Shown here: in pieces, positions 28,794 through 44,154 of the stretch
Layout: every line of letters starts with the position of its first letter
Position numbering within the stretch: the stretch's first letter is position 1
Origin: an uncultured Bacteroidales bacterium
Lineage (GTDB): Bacteria > Bacteroidota > Bacteroidia > Bacteroidales > GCA-2748055
DNA: 64,000 nucleotides
Assembly (NCBI GenBank): GCA_963771005.1
Contig: CAVYRO010000003.1
Location: 868,657 to 932,656 of the forward strand
Direction: 5' to 3'
Position numbers and translations under genes: made by a program
The notes under the pieces: generated by a model
What the model was told of the DNA's origin: nothing
Databases searched by the model: none
The model's input: the letters and a program-made list of their open reading frames with translations, nothing else

Positions 28794-29387
28794 TCACCTG
28801 TTTTTCCTGTGATGAAAGATATATTGCCGTCCCTTGTAACATAGCCATGCTGTCCCCGCGCCGATAACCGCACCTGCAAGGACATCAGTAGGATAATGAA
28901 CTCCCAGGTCCATTCGTGAGAAGCCGATCACCGATGCCCATGAATAAGCCGGGATGATGACATACCACCGGGGATAGAGTATTGACAGAGAGGTGGCAAA
29001 TGCAAAGGCATCCGAAGTATGGCCCGAAGGAAAAGAAGGGCTTCCGGCGCTGGCTGCCTTGATTATATCTGGGTATTTTTGAAAAGGACGGCTCCTGTTA
29101 ACACTGTATTTAAGGACGGTCGTTACGATTGCTGCCGACGCAAGGGTTGCACCTGCGTAAAATGAGTCATACCTGGCGGCAGTATCCTTTGCAATGAAGC
29201 TATACCCAAAAAGTATCAATGGTGTTGCAATGGCGACCGGCGCGGTTGCGTCATCAAAGAACCGGAATGTATTATCAAGCCCGGGATTTCTTCCATGGTT
29301 AATTGCCCGCAGCAGGTTTATATCCGGATTCTGTGCAAAAGTGGAAAAGCCGGTGAGAAGAACTACCAGGAGAAGAAATTTTTTCAT
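28794..29387 (-). CDS. PAP2-family phosphatase
   Basis: The three PAP2 motifs are KYSVNRSRPF, PSGHTS and SRMDLGVHYPTDV. The likely start is MKKFLLLVVLLTGFSTFAQ. Confidence 0.85.
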   Translation of the reverse strand: MKKFLLLVVLLTGFSTFAQNPDINLLRAINHGRNPGLDNTFRFFDDATAPVAIATPLILFGYSFIAKDTAARYDSFYAGATLASAAIVTTVLKYSVNRSRPFQKYPDIIKAASAGSPSFPSGHTSDAFAFATSLSILYPRWYVIIPAYSWASVIGFSRMDLGVHYPTDVLAGAVIGAGTAWLCYKGRQYIFHHRKNR

Positions 29388-29582
29388 GGAGCTTGCGTAT
29401 AAGAAAATCAAATTTACATATACCTTTGATTTTTTAAATGAAACGGGAGAACATAATATATTTACCTGCTCACCTGCAAAATTTCCGTCTCCCTGTCATC
29501 CTGAAGTCAGACAGTGGTTTCGGAACGTCATTCCGGTTCGGGCAAAGTTCCCGTTTAACTTATATTAAAATACAATCCGATC

Positions 29583-40545: not shown

Positions 40546-41875
40546 TTAATGTCCTTTCTTTCCCATAAGCCCAATAACATTCGCGGTCATCGCCTCAATG
40601 CCCGTTTCAATCGCTTTCCGGTAATCGGCCTGCAAAACGGGTGAATGAAGCGGGGCAGGGGATTCACCTTTACTCTTTAGACCGGCCATTAGCTCCGGAC
40701 GTGTGACGCCGAGCCATACCAGGCATACCGGGATATTTTCAGGGGTTCTTCCATATTTCCCGAAATCTTCCGCGCCCATAACAGGTTTAACGGCAAACGA
40801 TATTTTCGCTTCCGAGAATGCCTCCGGAATATAAACGGATATCCCCCACAAGCGCCTCATCGTTCATTACGGGCGGAGTTTCGACGGTATCGATCTTTAC
40901 CTCGGGGAGGCGGTCTTCGGGCATACCGGCCGTGAGGGCGGCGCCCCGGCATATTCTTTCGATGGCGCTGATGGTCTTTTTGATCACCTCATCGTTATAA
41001 TAGCGCAAGGTGAGTTGCATTTTCACCTCATCGGGAATGATATTCGGACGCGTGCCGCCATGGATCGAGCCCACCGTAACGACCACCGGTTCGAGCGGGC
41101 TGATCTCGCGGCTTGCGATGGTTTGCAGGTCAAGTACGATCCGGGAGGAGATCACGATGGGATCGATACATTTTTCCGGGTAGGCACCATGTCCGCCTTT
41201 GCCATATACGATGATCTCCGCTGACTTAACCCCGGCAAGGGCAGGCCCGGTGACCAGGCCGATCTTCCCGGATTCCACATCCGGGTTGATGTGATAGGCC
41301 AGGGCATAATCCGGTACGGGAAATTTCTGAAATAATCCTGCGTCAATGGCCGCATCGGCGCCGGCGGAGATCTCTTCCCCCTCCTGTGCAATGACCATTA
41401 GGGTGCCTTTCCAGAGACCCTTCAGGGTTACGAGGGCATGCACCGTCCCCGCGAGGACCGACATGTGGATATCGTGGCCGCAGGCATGCATCACATAAAC
41501 TTCCTCGCCATTATCGTTTTTAGCCTGCTTTGTACTGGCGAAATCAAGGCCGGTTTTTTCCTTTACAGGAAGTGCATCCAGGTCGCATCGCAGCATGATC
41601 ACGGGGCCTTTGCCGTTCCTGAAAATCCCGACAACGTTATTGCCGCCGAAATTACGCGTAACTTCGAGGCCTGCACTCTCAAATTCCCCGGCCATCCGTT
41701 CGGCAGTCTGAAATTCCTGTAACGAGAGCTCGGGATTCCGGTGGATCTGCTTGCAAAGTTCATAGGCTTTGGGACTCTCAGTCTTAGCCGTAGCTATGAT
41801 CTTTTCGTTTACTTGTGAGGCAGCGTTCATTTGAAGAACGACGGACAATAAAAAAATGAGTTCAGGTATTTTCAT
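40546..41875 (-). pseudogene. M20-family amidohydrolase/peptidase (hippurate-hydrolase-like), frameshifted near 40820-40835
   Basis: The metal-binding motif is HACGHDIHM. ORF 40787..41875 reads ..PPVMNDEALVGDIRLY and ORF 40546..40860 continues IPEAFSEAKISFAVKPVMGAEDFGKY in another frame. The N-terminus is a signal peptide. Confidence 0.85.
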
Positions 41876-42005
41876 GGCTTTTTTTTTGGTGACCTGGTAT
41901 TACCGGGTGACTTTAAATCGGTACGAATGTACTACAATGTAACAAGCTCTTCAATCAACAAATCAAAAAATTCTTCAGGTGACGGTGCGTGTGGTCTTCT
42001 TGCCC

Positions 42006-42137
42006 GGGCGTAACCTTACCATGGGCATAACCTTACCATGGGCGTAACCTAACCACAGGCATAACCTACCACGGGCGTTACCTAACCACGGGCGTAACCT
42101 TACCACGGGCGTAACCTTACCACGGGCGTAACCGTGG
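42006..42137. repeat. 17-bp tandem repeat, about 7.8 copies
   Basis: The unit GGGCGTAACCTTACCAC and variants start at 42006, 42023, 42040, 42058, 42073, 42090, 42107 and 42124. The array is preceded at 41950-41985 by TCAACAAATCAAAAAATTCTTCAGGTG, the 8-mer/junction motif of the main family. Confidence 0.9.
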
Positions 42138-42627
42138 CTAATACAATGAAACCCCTCCGGGGTGCCGGGAACACGATCATCATATATTATGCGCGTGACC
42201 TTACCTCGGGAGTAACCATGAGTAATACAATTAAACCGCCTCCGGGGTGCCGGGAACACGATCATCGTATACAATGGACGTTTTGGTGGGTAATACAATT
42301 AAATCGCCTCCGGGGTGCCGGGAACACGATTATCATATATTATGCGCGTGACCTTACCACGGGAGTAACCATGAGTAATACAATTAAACCGCCTCCAGGG
42401 TGCCGGGACCACGATCATCGTATACAATGGACGTTATGGTGGGTAATACAATTAAATCGCCTCCGGAGTGCTGGGACACGATCATCGTATATTATGTGCG
42501 TGACCTTATCACGGGCGTAACCATGAGTAATACAATTAAACCACCTCCGGGGTGCCGGGACCATGATCATCGTATACAATGGACGTTATGGTGGGTAATA
42601 CAATTAAATCACCTCCTGTGGCAGATC
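42138..42627. repeat. 152-153-bp tandem repeat, about 3.2 copies, each made of two related half-units
   Basis: Both half-units begin TAATACAATTAAA(C/T)CGCCTCCGGGGTGCCGGGAACACGAT. Half H1 ends CAATGGACGTT(T/A)TGGTGGG, and half H2 ends TTATGCGCGTGACCTTACCACGGGAGTAACCATGAG. Phase marks are at 42221, 42374 and 42526. Confidence 0.9.
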
Positions 42628-42711
42628 TTCTCTTCCCTTTTTACTTTTTACTTTTTACTTTTGCCTTGGATTTTCTTCCCTCGGCGGGGTTTCAGATCCC
42701 TGAAACAATCT

Positions 42712-44154
42712 TTAATTATCCGAAAGCACAATAGTTTCAATGGAATGGGCTGGGCTGTTGAGCGGGGTTGCCTTTTTCTTCATCCAAAGCTTGAATGGGA
42801 TATCATCATTGGTCCTGTTCATCACCACGACAGCTATCGTTCCATCGGGATTGACAAAAGCTGTGGTAAGAAAGCGGTCGTCGTCCGACGAACTGATGAT
42901 GCGTTTGGCCCCGGGCCTGATAAACTTTGAGAAATGGCCGATGTAGTAATAGGAGTTCATATATTGAACATCTCCTGCATGTGTATCGGCGATCATGGTG
43001 GCCATGCACAGGTTGCCTACGTGATTCGGGCCTCCGGTTTCATCGAGAAGCAGGTTCCAGTCGATCCATCCTGCAGCCCAGTTGTTCAGGTCCATGATCA
43101 TGGATTCGCCGTACTGTTCTCCCCACCGCCATTCCGCGATCCTGTCAGCGCGGAAGGAGGCCACCGTCGCCTCGGTGAACACCAGGTTTTTCTCCGGCCA
43201 GGCTTCGTGGACCCGTGCAACGTTTTCGAAATGATCTCCCACGTACCAGTGAAATCCTGTCCCCCAGACGTATTGTGCTGCCTCCGGATCATCGAGCACC
43301 GCCTGCGCCCTCTGGTACATGATCCCCCGGTTATGATCCCAGATCACCAGCTTAATATCCTTTTCCGTGGCGGATAGGGCCGGTCCCAGGTAGTCCCTTA
43401 CAAAATCGCGTTCTTCCTCCCCGGTATAGATGCACGATTCCCAGGTCTGTAATGCCATGGGCTCATTCTGCACGGTGATTCCCCAGATGGGTATCCCTTC
43501 TTTCTTATATTCCCCAATGAAACGGATATAATATTGAGCCCAGGCATTCCGGTATTCAGGCCTGAGTTTTCCACCATGAAGCATGTCATTGTTGGTTTTC
43601 ATCCATGCCGGCGGACTCCATGGTGAGGCCAGGATCTTTACCGGACCTTCTGCACGCTCCAGTGCGGCCTTAATAAATGGGATACGGTATTTGCGGTCAT
43701 GATCTATGTTGAATGCGGAAAGAGACGTATCGCCCGGAACCTCATCGTATGCATAGCTGTCGCTGGAGAAATCACAACTGTTTATATTGGTGCGGCACAA
43801 GGAATAACCGATGCCGTCATCCATAGAAAAGTAGGCAGTAAGGATAGCTTGCTGCCGCTTAACGGGTAATCTGTAGAAGGTCTCGGCGGCAGCATCGGTG
43901 AAAGCACCACCAAAACCCGCGATCGTCTGGAAGGTCTTGTCCGGGTCGATGAAGATGAATGGATAAGCCTCATCGGGCTGCGCAAGATCTTCGAAGGGAG
44001 GCACTTCTTTCTCCGTAAGCCGGTCCCCGGTATTTTTTGCCGTAACAAACACCCTGGCCTCTATGTTGTTCCGATCCCGGATGTTCCCCGGAGTCTGACA
44101 GAATATTGCAGGGACAACACCTGCTAGAAACAGGAAAAAAAAGATTTTTTTCAT
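42712..44154 (-). CDS. Glycoside hydrolase family 30 (glucosylceramidase-like)
   Basis: After a signal peptide, matching segments are GFGGAFTDAA, WSPPAWMKTN, ITVQNEP (acid/base context) and LVFTEAT (nucleophile context). Confidence 0.85.
   Translation of the reverse strand: MKKIFFFLFLAGVVPAIFCQTPGNIRDRNNIEARVFVTAKNTGDRLTEKEVPPFEDLAQPDEAYPFIFIDPDKTFQTIAGFGGAFTDAAAETFYRLPVKRQQAILTAYFSMDDGIGYSLCRTNINSCDFSSDSYAYDEVPGDTSLSAFNIDHDRKYRIPFIKAALERAEGPVKILASPWSPPAWMKTNNDMLHGGKLRPEYRNAWAQYYIRFIGEYKKEGIPIWGITVQNEPMALQTWESCIYTGEEERDFVRDYLGPALSATEKDIKLVIWDHNRGIMYQRAQAVLDDPEAAQYVWGTGFHWYVGDHFENVARVHEAWPEKNLVFTEATVASFRADRIAEWRWGEQYGESMIMDLNNWAAGWIDWNLLLDETGGPNHVGNLCMATMIADTHAGDVQYMNSYYYIGHFSKFIRPGAKRIISSSDDDRFLTTAFVNPDGTIAVVVMNRTNDDIPFKLWMKKKATPLNSPAHSIETIVLSDN

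Follow-up and report, generated by a model that had tools for sequence, protein, structure and literature searches.

The block at about 41981-42632 of the window, by which we mean the whole 64,000-nucleotide stretch of DNA analysed, is best read as one genus-specific, multi-hairpin, REP-type extragenic repeat whose inner part was multiplied in place and later decayed; we give this reading a probability of roughly 0.7. As it now stands the array is probably a locally amplified and structurally decayed REP-like cluster, non-coding, which would have grown by slippage or unequal exchange. The family was most likely spread by an HUH/Y1 nuclease of TnpA_Y1 subclass 1.2, and its probable partner enzyme is a single-copy Y1 nuclease encoded on another contig of the same genome, at C8:90232-90681.

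The array lies 42 kb into a 1.0-Mb contig and has unique flanks. It sits between two genes on the minus strand, a GH30 glycoside hydrolase gene upstream of it (42712-44154, minus strand; Pfam PF02055, PF17189) and downstream of it an M20/M25/M40 peptidase gene whose product has a signal-peptide-like N-terminus (40787-41875, minus strand; Pfam PF01546, PF07687). These gene calls leave a gap of 836 bp, the same figure as that given by an earlier sequence-only reading of this DNA.

Along the plus strand the block is preceded by an octamer (H8) remnant and the junction motif TCAACAAATCAAAAAATTCTTCAGGTG (41955-41981, plus strand), read directly from the sequence. They form a module of other, class-1, mosaic repeats, and the junction motif has matches of 92-97% identity at many further loci of the genome. 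The REP-like element proper opens with its 5' arm (41981-42004, plus strand), in which ACGGTGCGTGTGGTCTTCTTGCC corresponds to the canonical GATGCGTGCGTCCTCCTTACC in a by-eye comparison with canonical copies; this arm lacks the hairpin with which a canonical element begins. There follows a 17-nt array of 7.6 copies of CGGGCGTAACCTTACCA (42005-42133, plus strand), delimited by tandem repeat search and comparison of its units (Tandem Repeats Finder, period 17 nt, 85% matches, score 195). The 17-nt unit consists of the left arm and loop of a hairpin that we call B, plus the preceding 6 nt. The perfect copies are 1, 6 and 7; those in the middle have about 88% identity to the consensus. The array leads into hairpin B itself (CCACGG-GCGTAA-CCGTGG; 42120-42137, plus strand; pattern match at C3:910776), which by pattern match and predicted fold is the only intact one in the window. 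It is followed by the linker CTAATACAATGAA and an intact hairpin A (ACCCC-TCC-GGGGT), which belong to the first head and match the family core at 100% over 49-50 nt (42138-42165, plus strand).

The second part of the block has a period of 153 nt and 3.2 copies (Tandem Repeats Finder, 42134-42616; 93% matches, score 833), and a second repeat search returned the same 17-nt and 153-nt structure. Cutting at the repeated word TAATACAAT, together with alignment and unit identities, resolves it into six half-units (42139-42595, plus strand) that make up three higher-order repeats of 152-153 nt. The half-units start at 42139, 42223, 42291, 42376, 42444 and 42528 and are in order 84, 68, 85, 68, 84 and 68 nt long; a partial one follows at 42596. 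The 152-153-nt units are 91-95% identical to one another, and their differences of 5-9% fall at many fixed positions in an alternating pattern. Long and short half-units are 88-98% identical over their first 44 nt and have unlike tails. In the alignment each half-unit is a diverged copy of a basic unit of about 66 nt, comprising linker, hairpin A, spacer and a decayed hairpin B. The block closes with a partial seventh head (42596-42632, plus strand) that carries the 3' tail motif AGATCTTCT (42623-42631; canonical tail AAAAG(A)ATCTTCTAAAACGAA). Beyond it lie a microsatellite of 3.7 copies of the 7-nt unit CTTTTTA (42637-42662, plus strand; Tandem Repeats Finder) and an inverted, degenerate hairpin-A-like copy that reads TGAAACCCCGCCGAGG (42679-42694, minus strand) and is 88% complementary to 42147-42162.

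The sequence-only reading had described an H8/junction motif ahead of a 17-bp array of about eight copies, then about 3.2 copies of a 152-153-bp unit made of two half-units with a common head and different tails. It had also proposed nested levels of duplication and a second repeat class. This description holds, with the 17-mer array as one level, the half-units as another and their pairing into a higher-order repeat as the third; the class is indeed separate from the octamer and decamer modules. The same reading took the open reading frames called here to be artefacts of periodicity, and we agree, since none of the three that cross the array has a Pfam match at the default threshold and 153 nt amounts to 51 codons, which keeps the frame from unit to unit. 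The 66-nt arrays of the family elsewhere in the genome likewise contain ORFs of about 300 aa on both strands. Coding repeats were rejected for lack of a Pfam match, and a CRISPR-like array was rejected because the entire unit repeats and variable spacers are absent.

The link between this block and the rest of the genome runs through its first head. Positions 42120-42165 are a perfect copy of a dispersed core composed of CCACGG-GCGTAA-CCGTGG, the linker CTAATACAAT and CCCC-TCC-GGGG. Taken together, the last 17-mer and the first head (42115-42165) are 100% identical over 49-51 nt to the core, which is found at 43 loci, and a blastn-short search with this segment matched 104 places in the 6.1-Mb genome at 86-100% identity. 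We then counted a 24-nt core pattern, allowing up to two mismatches, in this genome, in the congener G204 and in 59 other genomes of the same taxonomic family. This genome has 97 occurrences and G204 has 85, with none in the 59 others, four of which are congeners; a reversed-pattern control gave none. An exact 28-nt pattern had no match in 185,579 species genomes, a set that perhaps does not include the organism's own genome, and hence at that stringency the family appears private to the genus. The 97 copies of the core in this genome form 43 loci, and none of them lies inside an ORF of at least 150 aa save for ORFs made by the arrays themselves. Array-made ORFs misclassified the present locus, which makes the ORF-based call of flanking gene orientation unreliable; it is used here only for extragenic status.

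The canonical element is about 110 nt long. A 23-nt spacer separates its hairpin A (AAACCCC-TCC-GGGGTTT) from hairpin B (CCACGG-GCGTAA-CCGTGG), and after the linker CTAATACAATGGAT come a second hairpin A and the tail AAAAGAATCTTCTAAAACGAA, behind which runs of 10-nt satellite usually lie. Its two copies of hairpin A (CCCCTCCGGGG) start 66 nt apart (11 + 23 + 18 + 14 nt). The family forms further arrays, namely 66 nt x 20 at C2:960.5k, 66 nt x 18 at C8:90.7k, 176 nt x 6, and 238 nt in at least nine copies at a contig end. The first two are alike in period and unlike in their spacers. Two contigs (C2:1-2600 and C5:1-1300) begin inside the same 238-nt array in opposite orientation, with 97.9% identity over 984 nt, and are probably one locus split by assembly. 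Four contigs that together comprise 0.83 Mb (C1, C4, C9 and C10) hold none of the 97 cores; about 4 of the 43 loci would be expected on C10 (557 kb), and chance, another replicon or foreign DNA in the bin could each account for this. The orientation of the repeat agrees with the sign of the GC skew at 25 of the 43 loci and thus shows no replication-strand bias, which leaves single-strand, lagging-strand targeting unsupported. Searches of Rfam gave no match at E <= 1 for the array region or for the Y1 locus and five intact copies, and none for the whole window at gathering thresholds; the Acido-Lenti-1 motif is among the models without a match.

How the later half-units relate to this family is less direct. 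The sequence-only reading had proposed searching the genome with a 40-nt head as the mark of a family. That head, like the later half-units, has no significant match outside the locus (blastn-short against the genome, E <= 0.05), a result that on that reading's own criterion would point to a local duplication; the first head with the last 17-mer, found at 43 loci, is what establishes a family. Homology of the later half-units to the family therefore rests on a chain through head 1 and on a column-by-column alignment (A2), in which heads 2-7 of the window match the family core, remnants of hairpin B included. These remnants are ACCACGGGAGTAACCATGAG and ATGGACGTTTTGGTGGG in the two half-unit types, which implies that both types are diverged copies of one basic unit with the order hairpin B, linker, hairpin A, spacer. 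Since the first head is the family core and heads 2-7 align to it, the local amplification appears to have been seeded from a member of the family.

The alignment of the family in the two species indicates that its hairpins are under selection. In hairpin A, changes on both sides of the stem are seen in 4 of 5 pairs, and 92.5% of cells are paired compared with 31-47% when the partner columns are slid. Compensation between the species takes the form of C-G to G-C in 8 sequences and A-U to U-A in 11. Hairpin B and the linker are almost invariant between the two species, and the six-pair stem of B is 94% paired across the family. Within the window, predicted folds show both hairpins in the first head only, and the later units have z-scores of -0.3 to +0.8 against shuffles. 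Folding no better than shuffled sequence fits neutral decay of these units.

Three genes in the genome have a Pfam Y1_Tnp match, each present in a single copy and 21-31% identical to one another as proteins. All three products keep H-x-H, the catalytic tyrosine and the Y---Q--HH motif (YVMNQENHH, YVENQQVHH and YILNQPEHH). The probable partner of the repeat, encoded at C8:90232-90681, is a protein of 149 aa with a Pfam PF01797 match at C8:90259-90585. It retains H-x-H and Y114, and Y---Q--HH is the signature of TnpA_Y1 subclass 1.2. Its score against the NCBIfam IS200 model is 49.5 bits, below the cut-off of 55; it has no match to the NCBIfam RAYT model NF047646 (TnpA-REP, class 2), and its sequence matches in the PDB are weak ones (E ~1e-3) to the TnpA of ISDra2 and IS608.

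What ties this gene to the repeat is its surroundings. It lies in a REPtron-like locus (L002, C8:88759-92085) with inverted 63-nt arms, at 802-864 and 1225-1287 of the locus facing 1963-2025, that are 83% complementary. The left flank of the gene carries two inverted repeat copies and a 44-nt array of six copies, and the right flank a 66-nt array of 18.2 copies (97% matches) that begins 5 nt past the stop codon. Three ORFs of about 300 aa that this 66-nt array creates, on both strands, are spurious. The commonest 16-mer in the flanks of the gene occurs 94 times in the genome, at 42 loci, against 14 and 6 for the remaining Y1 genes. By the same measure Bertels et al. (2017; PMC5581495) report 41 around RAYTs and about 5 when the flanks are random or those of housekeeping genes. 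Those remaining Y1 genes (L001, C6:73939-77277, and L003, C3:35148-38489) have repeat families of their own that are unrelated to this one: one is accompanied by GCCTCCGTAGGTGGCGAATATCGATAGG-type hairpins (top 16-mer at 11 loci) and the other by a local repeat of 280-300 nt, including AACCTTATTTTAATTTTCAACCTTAATAGG, that is confined to that locus.

Gene and repeat are found together in two species. Orthologues with 64-66% identity are found only in G204, the sole other genome with the repeat. The other four congeners all lack the repeat; two of them have homologues of 49% identity and two have no match. As the two carrier genomes are related, this co-occurrence of gene and repeat amounts to about one independent event. 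In G204 the Y1 gene and repeat cluster are present in three tandem copies at C4:345195-349183 (L035, L038 and L040), the Y1 copies lying at 345569, 346646 and 347857 with a period of about 1.1-1.2 kb, and each copy is flanked by the repeat in inverted arrangement. The flanks of 19 Y1 homologues from the order (37-51% identity) contain none of the family's motifs. Several of these homologues (L008, L015, L017, L018, L020 and L023) have their own inverted or direct GC-rich hairpins, separated from the gene by an ATTNAA context, such as ATATTCAACCCC...GGGGTT, and the hairpin nearest to the C8 gene, CTATTAAACCCC...GGGGT, looks like those of the homologues.

From the anatomy of the block we infer four steps of amplification. 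A 17-nt piece of hairpin B, comprising its left arm and loop, would have slipped out to 7.6 copies. The basic unit of linker, hairpin A, spacer and hairpin B would then have multiplied, with unequal exchange or slippage at the element's two A hairpins as the probable mechanism. Adjacent units may next have diverged into the 84/85-nt and 68-nt types, and the resulting pair would finally have been triplicated to give the 153-nt higher-order repeat.

A different account of the growth has the units laid down singly by the Y1 nuclease, an excised single-stranded unit being re-inserted beside its own recognition hairpin. Several features of the family point this way: the two distant arrays at C2:960.5k and C8:90.7k share a 66-nt period and have unlike spacers, one of the two begins right behind the Y1 stop codon, and the arrays of G204 cluster around its Y1 genes. 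RAYT-driven formation of BIMEs has moreover been proposed by Nunvar et al. (2010; PMC2817692). However, 66 nt is the spacing of the element's own direct copies of hairpin A and also the period of both large arrays, and ordinary unequal exchange or slippage between these direct repeats therefore suffices. The 17-nt unit holds no complete hairpin and is bounded by CC microhomology, which indicates slippage rather than an enzyme that recognises hairpins. The two-unit, 153-nt higher-order repeat is typical of recombination, and strand bias is absent. We therefore consider growth by the nuclease unlikely.

Whether the array does anything where it lies bears on the neighbouring genes. A scan for sigma-70 promoters on the gene strand of the GH30-M20 gap gave no sites, and no Bacteroidetes-type TAnnTTTG box (-7) was found on that strand of the gap; in view of the missing box the M20 gene may need transcripts that run across the array. 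A perfect 7-bp hairpin (GTTTCAG-ATCC-CTGAAAC; 42689-42706, unstranded) 5 nt past the GH30 stop codon is a candidate GH30 terminator. The arm of this hairpin is the same word as that found in the abundant 10-nt satellites of the genome.

The array could accordingly be read as a functional cis-acting RNA, serving as the 5' leader or attenuator of the M20 mRNA, as a protective 3' structure of the GH30 mRNA or as tandem small RNA genes. It takes up the whole spacer between two co-oriented genes, transcription of M20 may pass through it, and hairpin A of the first head (42138-42165) is terminator-like on the minus strand. Stabilisation of mRNA and termination of transcription are reported for classical REPs (PMC3733652). 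Against this, neither the array nor the intact copies have an Rfam match at E <= 1, units 2-7 fold like shuffled sequence, and their hairpin stems carry disrupting changes.

Gene order in the congeners argues in the same direction. Orthologues of M20 in three of them have 72-74% amino-acid identity to the gene here. In G203, G204 and G205 the M20 gene sits behind a different gene, with a short spacer and without the array. In G203 and G205 an oxidoreductase gene comes first, then the PAP2-like gene and then M20, which is preceded by less than 200 bp of spacer; in G204 this spacer is about 140 bp. In G201 the GH30 gene is followed by the PAP2-like gene. The homologue of this PAP2-like gene, which codes for 219 aa in the congeners, is found here 12.5 kb off, at 28797-29399 (minus strand), with the array in its stead. 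A gene that stands between GH30 and M20 in congeners (G201, G203 and G205) is thus displaced here, and the 836-bp spacer represents a derived state at a rearrangement junction. A role as a functional RNA is, in our judgement, quite improbable. We read the array, non-coding and with most of its hairpins disrupted, as neutral debris in the rearranged GH30-M20 spacer, with at most an incidental effect on read-through from GH30 to M20.

That the block is a purely local duplication of unique sequence, with no family behind it, would fit the 40-nt head, the full half-units and the tails, for which blastn-short finds no match outside the locus (E <= 0.05). This is very unlikely, since the last 17-mer and first head match the core at 43 loci and in a second species, the block closes with the family's 3' tail motif, and heads 2-7 are 88-98% identical to head 1. 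The converse, a family copied from the window locus, is implausible, because the copies flanking the Y1 gene and those of G204 are intact and the window copy is decayed. That the array or its copy number is an artefact of the assembler is scarcely credible: other arrays of the family do break contigs, as at the starts of C2 and C5 with their shared 238-nt array, but the units here differ at many fixed positions in consistent alternation, and unique flanks surround the block, which lies 42 kb into the 1.0-Mb contig.

With the block thus read as a family member amplified in place and since decayed, its own interest is only local: it shows how a minisatellite with higher-order periodicity can come from a REP-like element, and it flags the junction of a gene rearrangement. 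The array is itself an unremarkable by-product, and the system of repeat and probable enzyme from which it stems is less ordinary. One intergenic repeat class of this lineage is now tied to a specific candidate enzyme, and one small protein with a few oligonucleotides would suffice for a direct test of a REP/RAYT-like partnership in Bacteroidota. Arrays of this kind could also be used as strain-typing markers, and they carry a warning for assembly, since contigs of this genome break at arrays of the family.

Among known systems, the BOX elements of Streptococcus pneumoniae and bacterial VNTR minisatellites with higher-order repeats, whose internal tandem modules vary in number, resemble the array in being modular, intergenic and non-coding and, probably, in growing by slippage or unequal exchange. 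The array itself has the head-to-tail tandem units and non-coding character of a minisatellite. It differs from BOX in having been seeded by a REP-like element with ties to a Y1 gene, and in its two-unit higher-order period. No cognate nuclease is known for BOX elements.

The enzyme shares with the TnpA of IS200/IS605 elements (IS608, ISDra2; PDB 2a6m, 2xm3) its catalytic fold family and subterminal hairpins by the gene. It departs from them in that there is one gene copy, the flanking hairpins are inverted rather than direct, the IS200 score is below the cut-off and there are far more repeats than gene copies. TnpA_Y1 subclass 1.2 (Quentin, Siguier, Chandler & Fichant 2018; PMC6006769) has in common with our case Y---Q--HH, kept in all three Y1 proteins, a length of about 150 aa, low copy number and a host in the Bacteroidota. 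The one survey of that subclass that we found lists no partner repeats (PMC6006769), whereas here the gene sits amid inverted hairpin clusters and the core is dispersed at 43 loci. One may speculate from the sequences that subclass 1.2 enzymes of the Bacteroidota are domesticated RAYT-like nucleases, each with a cognate multi-hairpin repeat, that recognition and cleavage would here depend on hairpin B together with the CTAATACAAT linker, and that head-to-tail arrays would be actively built; we offer this tentatively and think it less probable than not. Were it true, this would be a second, independent REP-type system whose enzyme clade, repeat grammar and amplification geometry are unlike the proteobacterial one.

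In its workings the system most resembles the REP/BIME and RAYT pairs (REPtrons) of Proteobacteria (Nunvar et al. 2010, PMC2817692; Bertels & Rainey 2011, PMC3116915; Bertels et al. 2017, PMC5581495). Both have short, GC-rich, extragenic hairpin repeats, at about 100 copies per genome and often clustered, that are specific to a species or genus and co-occur with the gene across genomes. Both also have a single-copy Y1/HUH gene between inverted repeat copies, with over-represented flanking 16-mers (94 here). The differences lie in the enzyme, which is not a class-2 TnpA-REP and has Y---Q--HH in place of the YIxxNP type, and in the repeat, which has neither GTAG nor CGTC at its head (canonical copies are TTACCACGG...CCGTGGCTAATA and ATTAAACCCC...GGGGTTT) and has a unit of two different hairpins with a conserved linker. 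The arrangement differs as well, being one of singlets or of head-to-tail arrays in the same orientation, rather than the inverted doublets of REPINs or alternating BIMEs. As enzyme clade and repeat head, two features that define REP/RAYT, are different here, and the geometry differs too, we file the system as a variant of REP/RAYT rather than as a member.
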